Shown here: piece after piece, positions 1-8,237 of the stretch
Position numbering within the stretch: the first letter of the stretch is position 1
Layout of the letters: every line of letters starts with the position of its first letter
Program-made: the position numbers and the translations under genes
Notes under the pieces: generated by a model
Seen by the model: only the letters and a program-made list of their open reading frames with translations
Told to the model about the DNA's origin: nothing
The model's database searches: none
IMG/VR virus record: IMGVR_UViG_3300031715_000002
Span: 1-64,000 of that record
Reading direction: 5' to 3' (one strand)
Origin: a virus
Length of the DNA stretch: 64,000 bases

Positions 1-1
1 T

Positions 2-1015
2 CATCTCTTCCTCGTCCTTGTCATCCTCATCCGGTTCGTCATCGGCTCCCGGCTTGTCGGGCTTGTCGCTGCCGCTCTTCTTGAGTTTCGCCGCCTTCTC
101 CGCCTTGGCCAGCAGAACCAGTTTCTCACTGGGGCCAGCTTTGGCGAAGGCTTGCTGGTCAGCGGCTGACATCGTCACCACCAGTTTTTCTTCATCGCGC
201 TTGTTGCAGGCTTCCTTCATCATGCCCTTGCGCTTCTCTTCGTCCGCAGCCATGTACGCTTTCTTCTGGTCGTCCGTCATCGCCCCGAAGGCTTTGCGCT
301 CCTTCTTGGACATCTTCAGCACTAATCCGCTGATGGCTTTGGACACTGTGTTTTCGGCCAGCAGGGCTTCAGTGGCGGCTTTGAGCGTGGCAATGGTGCC
401 CTCCAGTTCGATTTGATTTTTCTCGATAGCTTCGAGAGTTGGCATGGTATCTCCTTTGTCTGACTTCAGAATTGGGGGCAATTCGTCATCGCCCTTGTCG
501 GGATTCGCAGCGCGCCAAGCCGCCCGAACGCGCGACTTAACGGATGCCAGTTTGTCTGATGGAATTTGAACCTTGTTTCCTCGGAACCCTTTACCGAGGG
601 CGGCCACAGCAGCGCCAACGATCTTTGCGTCTGGCTTGCCTCCTGGGGATGAAGTAAGTCTGAGTTTCCATGTCGATGGCTTGGTTTTATCCGGGGTGAA
701 TGCCCAATCCGAGGCAGGAAAACAAGACCCACCCTGAGTTTGGCAGACACCATCCTTGCAAACTCCTTCAGCGCCACCGCCGCCAACTGCCTTGCATATC
801 AGGTCGTTATCGTCCCATGCGTCGTCTGCCTTGCAGAGAGCACGTAACTCCTGCTCGTTCACGTCGGCACCTCCTGAATCTTTTGAATGTCGTTTCCATA
901 TAGCCACAACCGCGCGTTGGATCTTGCGCTGAGTTTTAGGATCTACTTCACTGCAGGCTGGAGCGTCAACTAGCGAGACCTCGTTCACCGCAAGAGAGCT
1001 AAGTTCATTCGGCAT
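2..1015 (-). CDS. Prohead protease C-terminal strand / capsid scaffold protein, runs off left edge (not in ORF track)
   Basis: Hand translation is open from ATG 1015: MPNELSSLAVNEVSLVDAPA... with an EVSLVDxPA motif, then a K/A/D-rich coiled coil. In-frame internal ATG at 445 preceded by AAAGGAG. Confidence 0.75.
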   Translation of the reverse strand, partial: MPNELSSLAVNEVSLVDAPACSEVDPKTQRKIQRAVVAIWKRHSKDSGGADVNEQELRALCKADDAWDDNDLICKAVGGGGAEGVCKDGVCQTQGGSCFPASDWAFTPDKTKPSTWKLRLTSSPGGKPDAKIVGAAVAALGKGFRGNKVQIPSDKLASVKSRVRAAWRAANPDKGDDELPPILKSDKGDTMPTLEAIEKNQIELEGTIATLKAATEALLAENTVSKAISGLVLKMSKKERKAFGAMTDDQKKAYMAADEEKRKGMMKEACNKRDEEKLVVTMSAADQQAFAKAGPSEKLVLLAKAEKAAKLKKSGSDKPDKPGADDEPDEDDKDEEEM

Positions 1016-1017
1016 AA

Positions 1018-1302
1018 CTAATCCCCTTGCAGCCCGCGATTCTCAATCAACCTTGCGAGCCTGCGCTCCGATGCGATTAAATCCTCTTTCATCACGGCAT
1101 TCTGCTGGATCTCTACAATGGATGCCCTGATATTGCTAACCTGCCGCTGAAGGTCGCTTTCGCGTTCTCTGGACTCTTTCACAAAATTCTCCACGTATCC
1201 TAACCTCTCAAAGAGTTCTTCCGCGTTGCGGATTGGAACGTTGCGCCTGAGTTTGCGCTTGTGCGTGACCAAAACACCATAAATGTGGGCATGGAGCGCC
1301 AA
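1018..1302 (-). CDS. Hypothetical coiled-coil protein (start uncertain)
   Basis: Co-oriented ORF filling the gap between neighbours. Confidence 0.4.
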   Translation of the reverse strand: MALHAHIYGVLVTHKRKLRRNVPIRNAEELFERLGYVENFVKESRERESDLQRQVSNIRASIVEIQQNAVMKEDLIASERRLARLIENRGLQGD

Positions 1303-1378
1303 CGGTTACGTAGGCACAGATAAGCGAGCAACACCAATTGGCAGCACAGGGATGTGATAATGAGAGGCATCTAGATCG

Positions 1379-1855
1379 TTACTTACCTTGTGGCATGCGA
1401 TCTTCTGAGGTCGCCATCCCCTTGACCACTTTGAAGAGATTGCTCAGACTGTGCACTTCTAGACGCTGAAATGGGGTGACATTGTAGACCCGCAGCATAT
1501 CGAGCCGATAACTCCCTGGTGGCACGTCAGGAACGATCAAGCCTTCAACCACTTGGTGACAACCTAACTCCAACTCCCTGACAACCATCCCTGGAAGCGG
1601 GTAAACTACTGAATCAATGAAGGAATAGTGCGTTTCTGCGCTAACATCACTGTATTTGCAATAACTCATCTTGTATTCCAGCGAACCGCCGATAGAGACT
1701 TCCTTTTCGACCACGTGGATTTGATCCGTCAGGATGAATGAGTTGCGGGGTCTACTCCACCAGACATACAGGCTCAATGGGATTAGCGCCAATGTGATGG
1801 CGACAACCGTAGCCAGCATCAACACATGGTTTGACGTTAAGTGGAATTCTTTCAC
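1379..1855 (-). CDS. Single-pass membrane protein with Cys-pair beta-rich domain
   Basis: N-terminal hydrophobic helix; GTGA overlap with upstream gene. Confidence 0.65.
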   Translation of the reverse strand: MKEFHLTSNHVLMLATVVAITLALIPLSLYVWWSRPRNSFILTDQIHVVEKEVSIGGSLEYKMSYCKYSDVSAETHYSFIDSVVYPLPGMVVRELELGCHQVVEGLIVPDVPPGSYRLDMLRVYNVTPFQRLEVHSLSNLFKVVKGMATSEDRMPQGK

Positions 1856-2187
1856 TTTTTGACATTCCAGATAAGGGCCAGAATGCTTCCCACCGCCGTA
1901 GTCAGAACAAGCCCGACCAATCCATAGACCACCCTTCTAACTGGATCAAAATCCGCTCTTGTGACGTATTGATCTTTAAGGCATTCCTCAATTGTCCCAA
2001 CCCGGCGTCGGATATCCCTGGATTCCGTTCGCACCTCCGTGAGCGGGTCCGTGCGCCAGCCGTGCGACTCATTATTCAGGTCATCGGCGAAACAGCATCC
2101 ACGAAATGGTAAGAACTCCCAAATGCTGATGCACATCGCGCATATTTGCACTGTAAGGTTCAGCAACAGCAGTTGTAGGAATGTCAT
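1852..2187 (-). CDS. Small membrane protein, XhlA/holin-accessory-like
   Basis: Coiled coil followed by C-terminal TM helix (VVYGLVGLVLTTAVGSILALIW). Confidence 0.55.
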   Translation of the reverse strand: MTFLQLLLLNLTVQICAMCISIWEFLPFRGCCFADDLNNESHGWRTDPLTEVRTESRDIRRRVGTIEECLKDQYVTRADFDPVRRVVYGLVGLVLTTAVGSILALIWNVKK

Positions 2188-2204: not shown

Positions 2205-5200
2205 TTACCCGGCGATTGCCGCGCGCTTGCCTTTGCCGCCAACGCTAAATGACCTCAATTCACCAGACGTAATGGATTGCCAGCAGGATTCGCTGGAAAT
2301 GCGAAAGCCAATCCACCAGCCACAGAATGGCATGAACATCGTGGCCGGGATGCCTTGGTCGTTGAGCGAGCGCGTCATCGCTTGCACTTTTTCGTCATCA
2401 AAGAAAACGCTCTCGACAAGTTCTCCTACTTGCTGCGGCTTGCCGTCGCCATCTGTCTCATGCATTTCTCCGGCGACGCGCGCATCCAAACAGTAAGAGT
2501 ATACAGCGGCCTCTAATGTTTTTGGGAGGATTACGTCTGCCTGAGTATCGACCACCGGCTTCCCATTTGCCGAGACAATCGAGGCCCACCCAAAAACAAG
2601 ATGCTGCGGCCTGTCGATCTTGATGATATTCCCGCTCAACTCAAATGCGCATTCCTCTTCTCGCTTGATGGTTGCGGTCTGCCCGCTCAGTGGAAATTCT
2701 TTCTTCTCGCCGCCAATCGACAGCGTGATTCTGTCGAACGTAACCGGGATATTCTCCGGCGTAGCCAGCAAGTGCGGCGCATGTGGCGCTAGGAACTTGA
2801 GCGTGATGTGTGGCGTGTAGCCGAAGTTCTCGCGCGGTTTGCCGCCGCCTTGCTTGATGGCATCCACGAGTTTCTGTCGGAATTGCTGAATGTCATCCGA
2901 ATGGAAACTGCGGTAGGCCACATCCTGCCCATCGGACTGTAGCGTTGCAGGGAATCGGCCGATGCCGCCGATGATGCCAGAGATCGGCGGTTCGTTGCTG
3001 GCGAACACGCGAATGGCATTCTCGATGACCGGCATGACGGTTGGGTCCGTCTCTTCTTGCTTGCCAAGATAGGCCAACGTTAGATGAATATCTTCCGGTG
3101 TCTCGCCACCCGGTACCGCTAGTGCTTTCTGCGTCTCCGCATCGGGCCAGAAGGCAATGAGCACACCATTGCCAGCCTTAGCGACTTCGTCGGGCCGTTT
3201 GCTGCGGTCGTCAATCAACTCGACCATGCCTGGGTCTTTCTCGTTCGTCACCGGCAGCACTTGTCCGATATGCGATTTACACCAGAACTCAATAGCGCGC
3301 TTAATTTTGCCGTCTGGGTCATCGGCCACGCGAGCGGTGAATATCTTGACTGCCTTGCCCTCTGCGAGTAGCCACTTGACGTAATCGACCATCTTGGGGA
3401 TGGGGTGCCCAATCCTGGTGCCATCGTAGGATTCAAGCGGAGCGGCGAGTGTACCATCGAGGTCCACAGAAATGCTCTGAGGCCATCGCCTTGCGTCTTC
3501 CTTCTTGACTATCTTCGCAGCCCACTTGCCGGCCGCTGTGCCGCCCCACGCGTCACGCGTTGAGGATGGCTCGGTAGCGCTGGCCCCATCTGCGAAGTGC
3601 TCCGCAATCTTACGTAGCGCCTCAACCGATAGCCCTCCGCCTTCTGCGAGCGGCGCAGTGATGTCGATGACAGCATTGCCTGAAGCATAAGCAGCGCGCG
3701 CCGCTTTTGCTATCTCTATAGGGGGCAGGTACTTCTTTACGTCAGGCTTGCCGGTCCAGGAGTCGCACACCTGATCGGCCTGTACGGGGTAGTGATCATA
3801 CATCTTGCAATTCCCCGCTGGATCGTAATAGCTACAGTTCGCGCACCGCTCCGTACCCGTAGTCTGGCGAAGATGTGGAGGGATTTGTGGTGCAGCCTTT
3901 TCGGTAGCCTGGAGTTCTTCATTTCCATCATCGGTATCGTCATCCGTCAGCGAGTGGAGAATCAGGTAGATGCCACCCTTGAACGGTTCGTCTTCTTCAA
4001 GGTCAATGTCTTTGATCTTGTCATCGTTCCAGCGTTTCATCGAAGCGTGGTCGCTGAAATCGTTCGGCGGGTCTTCGATATCCTTGGTATCCACATCGAA
4101 GTCGGCAGGGCAATCGTCATCGACCCAAGCATTGAGCAGAGCCTCAAAGCGTGAGTGATCCACCATGCCAATCTTTATGGTCGGGTCAGCCTGCCATCGC
4201 TCATACAGAGCCTTAGCCCATCCCAGTTGGCGCTTCTTGCTGGCGTTGAACGATTCGCCCGTTTGGCCGTCATTGCCTTTGCCTGGTGGCACTTCATCGG
4301 GATGCTTCACAAACCAGTTTATGAGATCTTGATTGTCGCCTCCCGATTTACCCTCAAATTCCCCGAGGTGCCATGGCTGAATTTCAGGGACTGGCTTGCC
4401 GCGGCGCATGGAGCGCGTAGCGTGGCGCGCAATGGCATCTGCCGTCTGAACAGAACGCCGTAGGGGGCTATTGTATAGGACATCTAGCCCCCCACGAGCG
4501 GCGATTCGTTGGCCTAATCGGTCGGCCAGCTTCTCGCCTTTGGCGTTTAGCGGGATGTTTGAGCTTCCTGAGATTCGTTTGGCGATGATTGCTTCGCCGC
4601 TGGCGTTACCTTGAGATCCTGACGGAACTCCCGCGCCATTCTTCTTCGCGCTCGCGCGATGTTTCTCTGCCTCTTCGTCATCTTCCTTTTCCGGTCTGTC
4701 GTCTGGACCTGCCGGCATTGGCAGGAAGTCAGCGCCGTTCTCTGGCGGGTCAACATCCTGCGTGCCTGGGTCGTCCTTATCCTCTGTCCGCTTCTTTTGA
4801 ATCGCCGCAATAATGGAGTCGTAATCGGACATGCCTAGTTCCGGCTTTTCCTCCATCAGTTCCACGAGCTTTTCAGTGAGCACATGGAGCGGTGCATCGG
4901 ACTTGATATCCTCGCGCGCCACTTCGAGCAACCGAAGGAATAGCGGCACATCCAGCGCTATCGTGTCGCCCTTGGCAGTAGGCACCAACAGTTGCCCCGC
5001 CTCTTTGGCCTTGCGCTTCTTTTCCTCTTCGTCTTCATCCTGTTCGTAACGCAATGCGCTGCCAATAGGCACGGGAGAGTGAACCATCCCAACAGTGGGT
5101 GATGCCTTTTGGACTTCCCACACGCCAAGGCCAGTCTCCACGTAGCCGGATTTCTCCAACTCCCGGTAGCCCTTGATGTAGGCGTGCATCTCAGAGCGGC

Positions 5201-5327
5201 CATCGGCTAACGCCTGATTCATCGCCATGCGAAAGATGGTCTGCGCATCCGCATCAGGCACGGCATCGCGAACCGATTCCGGAAGGTCCGAATTGCTGGA
5301 GAGGTGCATCACGCGGAGCGTTGCCAT
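2205..5327 (-). CDS. Multidomain XkdF-type prohead protease (ChaB-like, histidine-phosphatase-like, 4-Cys HiPIP-like, HAD, 2H phosphoesterase, XkdF)
   Basis: SNSDLPESVRD..AQTIFR (ChaB); SPLRRSVQTA and GESF; CxxC..C..C-W; DLDGT..FTAR..IDD; HLTL and HITL; VFGWA..D..MHE..WWIG..FSVGG. Confidence 0.85.
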   Translation of the reverse strand: MATLRVMHLSSNSDLPESVRDAVPDADAQTIFRMAMNQALADGRSEMHAYIKGYRELEKSGYVETGLGVWEVQKASPTVGMVHSPVPIGSALRYEQDEDEEEKKRKAKEAGQLLVPTAKGDTIALDVPLFLRLLEVAREDIKSDAPLHVLTEKLVELMEEKPELGMSDYDSIIAAIQKKRTEDKDDPGTQDVDPPENGADFLPMPAGPDDRPEKEDDEEAEKHRASAKKNGAGVPSGSQGNASGEAIIAKRISGSSNIPLNAKGEKLADRLGQRIAARGGLDVLYNSPLRRSVQTADAIARHATRSMRRGKPVPEIQPWHLGEFEGKSGGDNQDLINWFVKHPDEVPPGKGNDGQTGESFNASKKRQLGWAKALYERWQADPTIKIGMVDHSRFEALLNAWVDDDCPADFDVDTKDIEDPPNDFSDHASMKRWNDDKIKDIDLEEDEPFKGGIYLILHSLTDDDTDDGNEELQATEKAAPQIPPHLRQTTGTERCANCSYYDPAGNCKMYDHYPVQADQVCDSWTGKPDVKKYLPPIEIAKAARAAYASGNAVIDITAPLAEGGGLSVEALRKIAEHFADGASATEPSSTRDAWGGTAAGKWAAKIVKKEDARRWPQSISVDLDGTLAAPLESYDGTRIGHPIPKMVDYVKWLLAEGKAVKIFTARVADDPDGKIKRAIEFWCKSHIGQVLPVTNEKDPGMVELIDDRSKRPDEVAKAGNGVLIAFWPDAETQKALAVPGGETPEDIHLTLAYLGKQEETDPTVMPVIENAIRVFASNEPPISGIIGGIGRFPATLQSDGQDVAYRSFHSDDIQQFRQKLVDAIKQGGGKPRENFGYTPHITLKFLAPHAPHLLATPENIPVTFDRITLSIGGEKKEFPLSGQTATIKREEECAFELSGNIIKIDRPQHLVFGWASIVSANGKPVVDTQADVILPKTLEAAVYSYCLDARVAGEMHETDGDGKPQQVGELVESVFFDDEKVQAMTRSLNDQGIPATMFMPFCGWWIGFRISSESCWQSITSGELRSFSVGGKGKRAAIAG

Positions 5328-5742: not shown

Positions 5743-6729
5743 TCATGCTGCCCTTGGAAAGATCAATCCGTATCCGCAACGGCAGAGGGTGTGATATGGA
5801 GCGTACATGTCGCCGGTAGAGAACGGCTGGTCAAGCGGTATTGGACCTTCGGCTTCGATTCCCAAGCAGACGGGACACGTGGCATCGTCCCCTGAAGCGA
5901 TACTTTGCTTCAATGTGCCTATCGGGATAACATTGTTTCGCTTGGCCTGTTGATGCAGGGCAAATTGCCCAGTGTTAGCCGATCTTACTGTTTCGGTCCT
6001 CGCGATTGATTCAGCCCTGTACTTGAGATATCGATCATAGTAGCGCTGCACTTGCTGGTCAATCTGTTCCTGCGTCAGCGCTGTATCATTCCGCACCGCA
6101 GCCATCACCGTCCGGTCGAAGCGTTTATCGCGCAATTCCCGCTCTAGCGCATCGGCCATAGTATCCGGTGAAGAGAGCGCGCGGCGGTAATTCTCAACCG
6201 CTTGCTGCTGGCGCTGCGTCAAGCCGATGGAATCGCGGATTAATCGCGCCTGTTCGTAGGGATGCCCACCTTGCTCGAATGCATTCGTAATCACTTGACG
6301 GATGTTCTCTTTGGTGTCATCCGTGATCTGCTTAATGAGGTTGAACTGGTAGGATTGCAGGAACTTGACCGACTCCGGGTTCGTGATATCGAACGCCCAC
6401 CCGATGCCAATCTTTGCTGGAAGCGCCTCCTTCGCGGCCACGGCGCCCGCTGCAAAGGTTTCCCTGATGGCTGATTTGAACGACTGGATGCCGGTTTGCG
6501 TCTGCCCATTAAGCGCCGCAACAAAGTGCTGATCTACGGCCACAGCGGCAAGCGCTCCGTTGGCATCGCCGGTTGCAATGGCGTGCTCCAGTTCCGTAAG
6601 GGAGACTCTCTTTTTCAGGTAGGCCACGGCGGCAAGAAACGCATCCCGCAGCTTCGGCTCCATGCGCGAAGCCGCTTGCAAGATTGGATCTGTCTCGACT
6701 TGGGATTTACGGACGAAAGTTACGGGCAT
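5743..6729 (-). CDS. Phage minor head protein, MuF/SPP1 gp7 family
   Basis: RAESIARTE, TCPVC and PYHTLCRC motifs; directly downstream of portal. Confidence 0.9.
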   Translation of the reverse strand: MPVTFVRKSQVETDPILQAASRMEPKLRDAFLAAVAYLKKRVSLTELEHAIATGDANGALAAVAVDQHFVAALNGQTQTGIQSFKSAIRETFAAGAVAAKEALPAKIGIGWAFDITNPESVKFLQSYQFNLIKQITDDTKENIRQVITNAFEQGGHPYEQARLIRDSIGLTQRQQQAVENYRRALSSPDTMADALERELRDKRFDRTVMAAVRNDTALTQEQIDQQVQRYYDRYLKYRAESIARTETVRSANTGQFALHQQAKRNNVIPIGTLKQSIASGDDATCPVCLGIEAEGPIPLDQPFSTGDMYAPYHTLCRCGYGLIFPRAA

Positions 6730-6734
6730 GGATT

Positions 6735-8237
6735 CTACGCCACTTCCTGCAACCGCTCTGCTGCCTGTTCATCCGTCTCGCCTTGCACTGGAGCCGTCTT
6801 TCCCGCTGGCCTCTGAGGCGATTTAGGCCCTGTTGGCGGCTGGCCCTTACCTGAGGGCACGCCAGTCTGTTCAGGAGGCTCCTGAGCCACGGGAGACGGC
6901 GCGGCGGGGGCTTCCTTGGGTTCTTCTGGCAGCCTCGCAACCTTGCGCAAGTAGTTTGCCGTATCCGGGTCGAAGAACGACAGCCCAGACTGCGAGAGGC
7001 GCTGAATGTACGCCGAAAGCTCATCGAGGTCGCGTACCCCGATTTCGCCGGGTACCAGTTTCGGCGCAAGCGTTAGATCCATCTTGTTCAGCGCCATCAG
7101 GCGAGGGATGGCAATGCGGTTCATGACATCGGCCACCGAATCCATGAAGGCCCCGAGGGCAAGCGCAAAGATTTGAGTTGCGCTCATGTGGAGCGACCGG
7201 CTACCCGTGGGAGTCTGGCCAAACTGGATGAAGCCAGCCATCGCCGTATTGAGAATGTCTTGGTTATACCGATTGATGGTAGCTCCGGGGTCTGTCATCT
7301 TGCGGCCGGCGGCCTTGAGCAATTCCAGTTTGACCATGGGATTGCCCTTCTCGTCATAGGCGAGCGGCAAGAGAGCTCCCATCTGATCATCTACGCGAAT
7401 GTTAGTAATCATCTGCTTGGCGGCATCGACTCCGCCCATCGCGTTGATAACTTCCTGATTCGCGTAAAGTACCGGCAACCCGCACATGTCGCGCTCAATC
7501 CCGATGCCTTCCACTTCCTCGATCCTACGCTTGAAAAACCAGGGTCGGTAACAGTTGCGAAGGACCGAGCGACCCTCTGGATTATTCTTTATTGAAGTGG
7601 TGCGGAATAGCAGTAACTTTTCAATCGGAATCGGCACTGTGCGATAGTCCGGAGCTGCTAATTGGACTGCGCCCTGTAAGCCGCCCTCATCGTCCCATAT
7701 CCAGTACAGAATTGTTTCTTGGGCGCGCGGCGCGAGTTTGCGCCATCCGATAAGCCCGTCATCATACTTGCTGGCCTTACGGCCATCAGGACCGAGACGC
7801 CGCTTATAGACGGTTTCAAAGAGTCCATAGCCAAATGCAAACATGTTCACGCATTCTGCGATGAAGTCCGTCCACGTGTGGCTCATGTCGTTCATGTTGG
7901 ACTCTACGAATTCACCGTAATCGTCGCCCTTCGCTCCCTTCGATGGTTCAACACGCCATTCCGCCTTTCTGAGGATCATTTCCATCGCGTAGAACAGCGC
8001 CCCGATAATCGGATCATTGTCGCGCATTTCCCGGTAAACCAGTTTGGCTTGATATGTTGATAGGGAGCTCAGCCACTCTTCAAAAACATATCCGAGCAAC
8101 TTTGTTCTGGCGAGGCCAGATACGCCGATCTCCATCATCGGGTTTGGCTTTGGTAGGGTAACTCCAGCGCCAGGGATCGCTATAACCTCTCGCCGCGATG
8201 GTGTTATAGCCTTACGGATTGTCTCAAAGAATGACAT
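6735..8237 (-). CDS. Portal protein (DUF935/Mu gp29-like)
   Basis: 500 aa; YREMRDNDP, AFGYGLFETVY, NPEGRSVLR, GIERDMCGLPV; position next to MuF. Confidence 0.88.
   Translation of the reverse strand: MSFFETIRKAITPSRREVIAIPGAGVTLPKPNPMMEIGVSGLARTKLLGYVFEEWLSSLSTYQAKLVYREMRDNDPIIGALFYAMEMILRKAEWRVEPSKGAKGDDYGEFVESNMNDMSHTWTDFIAECVNMFAFGYGLFETVYKRRLGPDGRKASKYDDGLIGWRKLAPRAQETILYWIWDDEGGLQGAVQLAAPDYRTVPIPIEKLLLFRTTSIKNNPEGRSVLRNCYRPWFFKRRIEEVEGIGIERDMCGLPVLYANQEVINAMGGVDAAKQMITNIRVDDQMGALLPLAYDEKGNPMVKLELLKAAGRKMTDPGATINRYNQDILNTAMAGFIQFGQTPTGSRSLHMSATQIFALALGAFMDSVADVMNRIAIPRLMALNKMDLTLAPKLVPGEIGVRDLDELSAYIQRLSQSGLSFFDPDTANYLRKVARLPEEPKEAPAAPSPVAQEPPEQTGVPSGKGQPPTGPKSPQRPAGKTAPVQGETDEQAAERLQEVA

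Follow-up and report, generated by a model that had tools for sequence, protein, structure and literature searches.

A prohead protease at the end of a multidomain chain of putative cargo in the head module of an uncultured phage

We analysed a window of 64,000 nucleotides, the first 64 kb of the 96,199-bp IMG/VR virus record IMGVR_UViG_3300031715_000002 from an uncultured phage, and describe here P0001, a polyprotein encoded on its minus strand by a single 1040-codon frame (window 2205-5327) that runs uninterrupted across 3.1 kb. The record is rated 100% complete by CheckV and is probably circularly permuted or terminally redundant, because its first 130 bases reappear near the right end with a mismatch. 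The minus-strand gene order is portal, MuF-like, P0001, three small open reading frames (ORFs), a scaffold-like gene, a gene for a protein of 125 amino acids (aa) and the major capsid protein (MCP) gene, and P0001 thus occupies the slot of the prohead protease. An initial annotation, made from the sequence alone, had described a prohead protease preceded by a series of other domains, and this observation was confirmed, with one 1040-aa ORF lying between the portal/MuF and the scaffold/capsid genes. The genes of the head module are the following (window coordinates, except where genome coordinates are indicated):

6735..8237, minus strand: portal gene (phrog_113, E 8.6e-75; Pfam Portal_Mu, E 1.7e-28)
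5743..6729, minus strand: MuF-like head morphogenesis gene, upstream of P0001 (phrog_3517, E 4.9e-67; Pfam Phage_Mu_F below cut-off)
2205..5327, minus strand: P0001 polyprotein ORF, 1040 aa (single open frame, stop codon included)
1..1015, continuing over the contig end, minus strand: scaffold-like gene, 497 aa, coiled-coil (reconstructed across the 130-bp terminal overlap)
between the scaffold-like gene and the MCP gene, minus strand: 125-aa decoration protein (phrog_673)
genome 94987..93983, minus strand: major capsid protein, P0042 (phrog_1005)

The AlphaFold2 (AF2) model of the whole chain has a mean predicted local distance difference test (pLDDT) score of 77.8 and consists of eight well-folded blocks parted by disordered stretches, with low pLDDT at residues 74-120, 181-250, 476-481, 523-529, 713-718 and 885-895. 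All eight modules named in the initial annotation were recovered by profile or by fold, and the nucleotide ranges given there for the domains proved right to within a few codons. From the N- to the C-terminus, the modules and the short elements between them are:

5109..5315, minus strand: ChaB-like N-terminal domain, aa 5-73 (sub-threshold Pfam ChaB match; pLDDT ~90-95)
5058..5105, minus strand: copy of the capsid protein N-terminus, aa 75-90, ASPTVGMVHSPVPIGS (hidden Markov model, regular expression and register match to the MCP)
4782..4967, minus strand: three-helix module, aa 121-182, beginning DVPLFLRLLE (AF2 helices 127-140, 145-160 and 166-182)
4752..4775, minus strand: linker motif DDPGTQDV, aa 185-192 (kept in most relatives)
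3918..4577, minus strand: histidine phosphatase domain, apparently circularly permuted, aa 251-470 (His_Phos_1 profile and fold matches)
3747..3884, minus strand: HiPIP-like four-Cys module, aa 482-527 (near-threshold match to Pfam HIPIP)
3489..3731, minus strand: WGG helical module, aa 533-613 (pLDDT above 90)
3192..3488, minus strand: capless HAD phosphatase, aa 614-712, with D622xD624GT and D706-D707 (Pnkp-like fold match)
2676..3173, minus strand: LigT-like 2H phosphoesterase, aa 719-884, with H748-L-T and H840-I-T (Pfam and fold matches)
2238..2642, minus strand: XkdF-type prohead protease domain, aa 896-1030 (Pfam Peptidase_S78_2)

The protease assignment rests on a match to Peptidase_S78_2 (PF14550) at 51-55 bits, against a cut-off of 24 (E 1.8e-13, over aa 901-1035, to 7.5e-15), and residues H956, E972-S973 and S1028 are invariant in 17/17 XkdF-bearing relatives. 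H956 and S1028 are the likely catalytic residues, the nucleophile being chosen between S973 and S1028 by analogy with HK97 gp4. The domain is the sole XkdF match of the complete genome, where searches for an S78, Mu-I or ClpP-type protease found none, and no solved structure matches XkdF by sequence.

Forty relatives of P0001 were found, at 37-57% identity and with variable architecture. They retain a common frame, in which ChaB comes first and is followed by the helical module, histidine phosphatase, WGG, HAD and 2H; within or behind it, ADP-ribosyltransferase (ART), Fic, Zeta/AAA_33 kinase, ParB-N, PARP-like, PD-(D/E)xK-like and GNAT-like domains are inserted or appended. XkdF stands at the chain end in 17 of 41 proteins and is missing from the same chain in 24; in several relatives it forms a separate gene immediately downstream, with the same synteny. 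A library of 1.8 billion representatives further contains many short 2H-XkdF proteins as well as minimal ChaB-WGG-2H-XkdF forms. The metagenomic origin of the contig and the relatives with a separate protease gene might suggest that separate genes were joined into this long ORF by an assembly error or a frameshift. Independent contigs drawn from several sources (P0002-P0014, P0017 and P0019), however, show the same full-length architecture ending in XkdF, and the 3.1 kb of P0001 contain no stop or frame break, so that an artefact is hardly credible.

Two further observations concern the ends of these chains. Relatives without a fused XkdF end in a PD-(D/E)xK-like domain (FDLRNDD ... IGIEVKT) occupying the C-terminal ~150 aa, as at L008:1198-4569, L010:6299-9715, L011:5912-7897 and L013:10004-12367, and are followed by a separate XkdF ORF with an N-terminal 'GQFASN.GY.DLI' domain. 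XkdF need not be terminal, because in the P0013 relative (region of residues ~840-1254) it lies inside the chain and is followed by a GGPGSG linker and more modules, the last of them GNAT-like.

The best explanation of P0001 is that it is a phage 'polyvalent' head protein, in which the prohead protease is fused to a string of cargo domains. Polyvalent proteins, as described by Iyer et al. (2017; PMC5512222), carry 2-15 conflict-related domains per polypeptide in phages or conjugative elements, are predicted to be packaged and injected, and are linked to MuF and portal; 2H domains are listed among their modules, and so are processing peptidases of zincin-like, assemblin-like (C-terminal), DD and LonC types. 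P0001 resembles them in its eight modules, four of them enzymes, in the shuffling of domains among its relatives, in adjoining MuF and portal, and in combining a 2H domain with a C-terminal processing peptidase. It differs in that Iyer et al. mention neither XkdF, histidine phosphatase, HAD or ChaB, nor a cleavage motif or a copy of a capsid protein N-terminus.

The three phosphoesterase domains were assigned by profile and by structural comparison (VIA). The histidine phosphatase matched His_Phos_1 (PF00300) across aa 249-394 at 58.7-62.2 bits (cut-off 21.7; E 8e-16 to 6.9e-17), and its structural matches, all at Z 15-16.6, include PhoE and PspA at Z 16.4-16.6. The profile match begins at position 14-15 for P0001, and across all the relatives scanned closely at position 12-16; all structural matches begin past the beta1-RHG element of the target, for example at residues 16-19 where the nucleophile His is residue 9-11. 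The N-terminal beta1-RHG element that characterizes PF00300 is accordingly absent at that end of the P0001 domain. At the C-terminal end of the domain, a strand (452-457) is followed by L-H458-S-L-T, and standalone relatives have at the H458 site VRHAVTEWN, IRHGLTAYN or VRHGATKYN, near-canonical signatures of the family. Residues H458, H391, R291 and E325 are conserved in 38-39 of ~40 members, the nucleophile His in 39/40. Because the missing element recurs at the C-terminal end, with RHG or RHA in the standalone relatives, the sequence indicates a circular permutation that would keep the nucleophile His458 and lose the Arg of RHG; such a permuted topology is unusual within the histidine phosphatase superfamily.

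The HAD domain gave Z 10.1 to BT_0820 (2obb) and 9.6/8.9 to the T4 Pnkp phosphatase (5uj0 at 9.6), together with matches to phrog_1238 (E 4e-8) and, weakly, to Pfam HAD_PNKP (PF25109; 13.5 bits against a cut-off of 27.6, E 0.08). Its DxDxT nucleophile motif (D622-L-D-G-T) and C-terminal DD pair (D706-D707) are both present on a Rossmann-like core and are conserved in the relatives. The 2H domain matched 2_5_RNA_ligase2 (E 1.2e-11) and LigT_PEase (E 3.6e-9) above their Pfam cut-offs, and D. radiodurans CPDase (5h7e) at Z 17.8 (root-mean-square deviation 2.8, 160 residues aligned), with 1iuh at 16.8 and LigT at 15.6; a phmmer search with this domain against the PDB returned nothing informative. 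H748 and H840, from the two H-x-T motifs of the duplicated fold, are kept in 32-33 of ~34 members.

These domains bear on whether P0001 could be mainly a structural chain, an internal core or auxiliary scaffold whose enzyme folds would provide bulk or bind nucleic acid, and which would be degraded and expelled as scaffold is. The protease-scaffold-like position of P0001, the widespread occurrence of the 2H-XkdF pair as a minimal unit and the loss of the RHG Arg from the histidine phosphatase would suit such a role. Against it, the residues proposed for catalysis hardly vary in any of the four enzyme domains among relatives only 37-57% identical, a separate 497-aa coiled-coil scaffold exists, and the [VI]xK motif considered below is concentrated at the junctions rather than riddling the domains. 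We regard a purely structural role as decidedly unlikely.

The initial annotation had pointed to six Lys-ending linkers between the modules, and all six were found in or beside low-pLDDT inter-domain stretches. These junctions, which are putative cleavage sites, are:

5103..5114, minus strand: junction 1, V72-Q-K74/A75 (VQKA 72-75; low-pLDDT linker from residue 74)
4575..4586, minus strand: junction 2, I248-A-K250/R251 (IAKR 248-251; ends the low-pLDDT stretch 181-250)
3894..3908, minus strand: junction 3, T475-E-K477/A478 (TEKA 475-478; low pLDDT 476-481)
3729..3743, minus strand: junction 4, V530-K531-K532/Y533 (VKKY 530-533; beside low-pLDDT 523-529)
3174..3185, minus strand: junction 5, V715-A-K717/A718 (VAKA 715-718; low pLDDT 713-718)
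2661..2672, minus strand: junction 6, T886-I-K888/R889 (TIKR 886-889; low pLDDT 885-895)

Logos of the junctions across the relatives, anchored on the conserved sequence following each junction, have a recurrent form. At junction 1, P1 is Lys in 60 of 71 regular-expression matches (a few of them spurious) and P3 is Val in 46; at junction 2, P1 is Lys in 46/46 and P3 Val or Ile in 43/46; at junction 5, the corresponding counts are 44/54 and 40/54. Junction 3 appears in relatives as L-x-K after a conserved GN..L, and at junction 6 the linker Lys is present with less regular flanks. The scaffold protein contains 14 [VI]-x-K motifs where its composition predicts 5.3 +/- 2.1, and none of 2000 shuffles reached 14; the MCP contains one. 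A third line of evidence came from the N-termini of related capsid proteins. A scan for DNA encoding the pattern D-V-H-V-N-R-P-L retrieved >120 viral contigs, nearly all with the match at an MCP N-terminus. Among 96 related MCPs, Met directly precedes the motif in 82, while 14 have hydrophobic-x-K within 14 residues upstream of it. These include 11 distinct clear extensions of 5-12 residues, each with hydrophobic-x-K exactly at the motif start (F-A-K, I-K-K, L-Q-K, I-R-K, V-Q-K, I-S-K, L-T-K, I-N-K, F-R-K or V-M-K), and an XkdF gene lies within the few kb of flank fetched in 8 of the 12 loci with extended MCPs. Junction logos, scaffold enrichment and MCP extensions all point to the same motif and are most simply explained if the XkdF proteases of this lineage cleave (V/I/L)-x-K after the Lys. 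Cleavage of the capsid protein after a Lys is also known from HK97 gp4.

The first junction is followed by a segment resembling the start of the MCP. The phage's own MCP begins M-P-T-P-T-L-Q-M-V-H-V-N-R-P-L and those of its relatives M-P-L-P-T-L-G-D-V-H-V-N-R-P-L, while the polyprotein family continues past junction 1 as K-D-S-P-T-V-G-D-V-H-V-N-R-P-L-G and P0001 itself as K74-A-S-P-T-V-G-M-V-H-S-P-V-P-I. The copy comprises the 14 residues after Lys74 and is in exact register, with Lys74 at the place of the MCP Met1 or of the extension Lys; a cut after Lys74 would therefore leave the cargo with the free N-terminus of the mature MCP. A hidden Markov model (HMM) built from 50 distinct polyprotein 14-mers retrieved the MCP N-termini of all 8 genomes and of phage KPP23 at E 1e-6 to 1e-4, with that of L011 weaker (E 0.017) and the best unrelated match, among 3262 six-frame ORFs, at E 0.086. 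In a regular-expression scan of the 8 genomes the motif was confined to the MCP and the polyprotein. We read the copy as a probable docking or address peptide; the main alternative is that it represents a recognition element for the protease, shared by MCP and polyprotein. The variants 'MVH' and 'PTQ', shared between MCP and copy, were considered as a sign of co-variation and dropped; they are no evidence for it, because the test gave p = 0.19.

KPP23 (L016, AB910392, 6695-9975), a Pseudomonas phage available in culture, shares this MCP N-terminus, MKPTPGDVHVNRPLS. It has a standalone XkdF (ORF084) adjoining the scaffold gene (ORF085), whose product starts ...VVKELSGVDRPAH. Both the cut rule and the function of the N-terminus could perhaps be studied in the laboratory with this phage. 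The cultured phages RSP and RDJL Phi 1 also have the DVHVNRPL N-terminus. The paper on KPP23 reports N-terminal sequencing of the MCP and prints no sequence.

The copy also bears on where the cargo acts. P0001 could be a cytoplasmic polyprotein, whose enzymes would not be carried in the virion but would work late in infection inside the cell that makes them, for example on RNA ends or nucleotide pools, and whose fusion to the protease would serve co-expression and release only. That the XkdF fusion is facultative, being absent from the chain in the 24 relatives mentioned above and replaced by a separate protease gene in several, would agree with this. However, prohead proteases normally gain activity only inside the procapsid, as in HK97 and T4. 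The gene always lies inside the head module beside MuF, the capsid N-terminus copy and the ChaB/helical unit persist in relatives without the protease (the copy also in relatives without the ChaB domain), and the ART, Fic, Zeta and ParB modules found alongside are of kinds that typify injected effectors (Iyer et al., 2017; PMC5512222). A cytoplasmic role consequently appears rather unlikely.

The scaffold-like protein may be a partner of the protease. It begins with a hairpin, MPNEL..VNEVSLVDAPA..AVVAIWKR, that is conserved in 8 relatives, with similar starts in the scaffold genes of KPP23 and of the Arthrobacter phage Shrooms. Two of nine scaffold N-termini gave weak matches (E 0.05 and 0.13) to Pfam Peptidase_S78, at positions 130-153 of its 165. 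In the HK97-type protease these positions form the final strands of the fold, a part that the XkdF model (126 positions) does not reach. The scaffold N-terminus resembles these strands, which the protease fold of P0001 seems to lack. A complex predicted for XkdF 890-1040 and scaffold 1-60 scored 0.52 (runs 0.51, 0.52 and 0.65; best control 0.00), with a partner pLDDT of 46-60 and at least 63% of contacts common to the runs. Of the 80 solved complexes used for calibration, only 7 reached the mark with a score of 0.60 or below, as did both of the mismatched pairs that passed; these counts hold only roughly because our own alignments were used, and the XkdF-scaffold pair, if a split fold, could also score by likeness. 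Among 173 proteins none had XkdF followed by an EVSLVD.PAN strand within one chain, and the idea of a split fold therefore draws on the weak S78 matches and the weak complex. We treat docking of the scaffold on the protease as a plausible hypothesis.

The middle of the scaffold-like protein, flanked by the hairpin on one side and the coiled coil on the other, is a globular domain of strong conservation, FP.SD.AYTP..PS.WKLRLT..PGGKPD..IVGAAVAALGKGFRG (alignment A2, columns ~210-300; encoded within window 1-1015, minus strand, and genome 95591-96069). It matches phrog_19463, which is annotated as of unknown function.

Taken together, we propose that P0001 is a capsid-loaded, self-processed cargo chain ending in the prohead protease, a reading to which we assign a probability of about 0.68 and in which cleavage, packaging, delivery and substrates are all inferred from what was observed, namely the domain anatomy, the conserved catalytic residues and junction motif, the copy of the capsid N-terminus and the gene context. 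P0001 would be expressed late, along with the portal, MuF-like, scaffold and capsid proteins, and would enter the procapsid along with the scaffold core. There the N-terminal hairpin of the scaffold would dock on the XkdF fold, perhaps completing it, and the active protease would cut after Lys in (V/I/L)-x-K, degrading the scaffold and freeing the modules of the polyprotein at K74, K250, K477, K531/532, K717 and K888. The cut at K74 would expose the copy of the mature capsid N-terminus, whereby the cargo would probably use the same docking site or partner in the shell. The freed phosphatases and the 2H phosphoesterase would remain in the head, reach the next host with the DNA, and act there on phosphate-bearing RNA ends or nucleotide signals. 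A more specific form of this proposal, in which the MCP-mimicking N-terminus left by the Lys74 cut (x-x-P-T-x-G-D-V-H-V-N-R-P-L) is the cargo address, docking where the N-arm of the MCP itself normally docks in the shell or on the partner of that arm, and the scaffold hairpin completes an incomplete protease and thereby recruits it and switches it on, we put forward only tentatively and would not ourselves expect to hold in full. If true, this pairing of an MCP-mimic address with a scaffold-activated protease would be a scheme of cargo loading and protease activation not described for any phage.

Several observations weigh against capsid loading and self-processing as set out here. The copy in P0001 is degenerate, being identical to its own MCP at 6 of 16 positions and scoring 17.4 bits with the 14-mer HMM where the MCP scores 25.9; it is disordered in the AF2 model, and co-variation in cognate pairs of MCP and copy was not significant. 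P1 of junction 4 is Lys in just 25 of 47 relatives with a mixed P3, the junctions at K477 and K888 of P0001 have Thr at P3 rather than Val, Ile or Leu, and across the whole polyprotein [VI]xK is not enriched (10 against 8.4 expected). Our search of the literature found no measured specificity for an XkdF protease, the predicted XkdF-scaffold complex amounts to weak support, and the genome encodes no Rnl-type ligase, RtcB or AAA_33 kinase that could complete an RNA repair.

Known phage systems share parts of this scheme. The internal proteins and Alt of T4 bear a capsid targeting sequence that is removed by the prohead protease gp21, and the cargo is later injected. A short address peptide beside a protease site for cargo loading would be common to both, here as predicted from sequence. 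In T4 the signal is a leader at the N-terminus, which attaches to the scaffold core and is removed by a cut after Glu, whereas the peptide in P0001 copies the MCP N-terminus, would be exposed rather than removed, and follows a site after Lys; the protease, moreover, belongs to the cargo chain itself. In P2 gpO, lambda C/Nu3, Mu I/Z and HK97 gp4 the head protease is physically coupled to scaffold. P0001 differs from these in having enzymes, not scaffold, on the N-terminal side of the protease, and in an apparently divided protease fold, whose final strands would be encoded by the scaffold gene (weak support). The 2H and XkdF core has the same order in fusions from actinophages (for example Arthrobacter phages Shrooms, Laroye and Salgado, gene 18; Gordonia phage GTE6), which are deposited as 'RNA ligase' or 'capsid maturation protease', lie in a head module, and accompany MCPs of the same family as here (35-37% identity). 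At ~370 aa, these are only 23-35% identical to P0001 and have no phosphatases, HiPIP module, ChaB or copy of the capsid N-terminus; the MCP of Shrooms does not begin with DVHVNRPL. No functional study of these fusions was found in the open literature searched.

As to what the cargo might do, the initial annotation had drawn an analogy with the anti-CBASS enzyme Acb1 and had suggested RNA repair. The first is not supported at the family level, where the 2H domain is LigT/CPDase-like. The Acb1 profile (PF23474) had no match in P0001 at E up to 1, nor in the 2H domain alone up to 5, and three relatives reached only E 1e-4, below the cut-off; in the BFVD ranking, Acb1 models appear at ranks 41 and 50, as of a distant 2H relative. 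As to RNA repair, the HAD domain resembles the T4 Pnkp phosphatase and the 2H domain, with both HxT motifs, LigT/CPDase, both like end-healing enzymes, but a full RNA-repair role is unsupported because of the absence of the ligases and kinase noted above from protein and genome alike. By analogy, the three phosphoesterases look like a set for healing RNA 3' ends, in which the 2H domain would open a 2',3'-cyclic phosphate and the Pnkp-like HAD and histidine phosphatase would strip the phosphate left behind. The 2H domains of polyvalent proteins likewise come without a ligase, and RNase activity or the degradation of 2'-5' or cyclic nucleotide signals has been proposed for them (Iyer et al., 2017; PMC5512222). 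Processing of host or phage RNA ends and destruction of defence nucleotides would both fit an enzyme delivered with the DNA. A literature search on the phosphodiesterase of phage BCSR5 gave nothing useful.

To our knowledge, the loading of non-structural proteins into phage heads is known in detail only for T4-like phages, and how loaded proteins help in the first minutes of infection is poorly understood. The P0001 family offers a compact case, with one protease and a readable putative cut motif, a candidate address peptide copied from the capsid protein, and three phosphoesterases that might act on damaged RNA ends or on nucleotides used in defence signalling. Should the rules for address and cut prove right, sequence would allow capsid cargo to be predicted for many uncultured phages, and HK97-fold shells could be loaded with proteins by design. 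This analysis adds the extensions of related MCPs as evidence for the cut rule, a capsid N-terminus copied in register, a protease fold that may be split, and support for permutation of the histidine phosphatase.

The remaining modules of P0001 are less clearly related to known families. The ChaB (PF06150) match covers aa 15-71 and scores 23 bits (cut-off 27; E 1.2e-4), and the profile is matched by 10 of 41 relatives, with a best E of 1.2e-5. The three-helix module is kept in relatives and has no Pfam match. The HiPIP-like module, an insert in 8/41 relatives, aligns over aa 487-525 with positions 24-66 of HIPIP (PF01355) at 19.5 bits (cut-off 22, E 1.2e-3), and its four Cys, read directly as C-A-N-C ... 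C ... C-D-S-W, have the HiPIP spacing. The WGG module has the conserved signature YLPPxEV...NAWGG..A.KWA and no Pfam or PHROG match; fold-search lists were filled by the neighbouring HAD domain, and the sole lead was DUF6321, at a sub-threshold Atlas score of 0.81. The acidic DDPGTQDV motif sits in a disordered linker, is present twice in some relatives and is found nowhere else in the genome of this phage.

Beyond the polyprotein, the three small ORFs between the protease and scaffold genes (window 1018-2187, minus strand) encode 111, 158 and 94 aa, two of them with hydrophobic, membrane-like segments. Relatives have other, longer inserts at this place, resembling moron genes. Just past the head-tail connector genes, a match to phrog_4603, annotated as alpha-2,3-sialyltransferase (E 1e-38), lies at genome 88698-89408, minus strand (L001:4699-5409).

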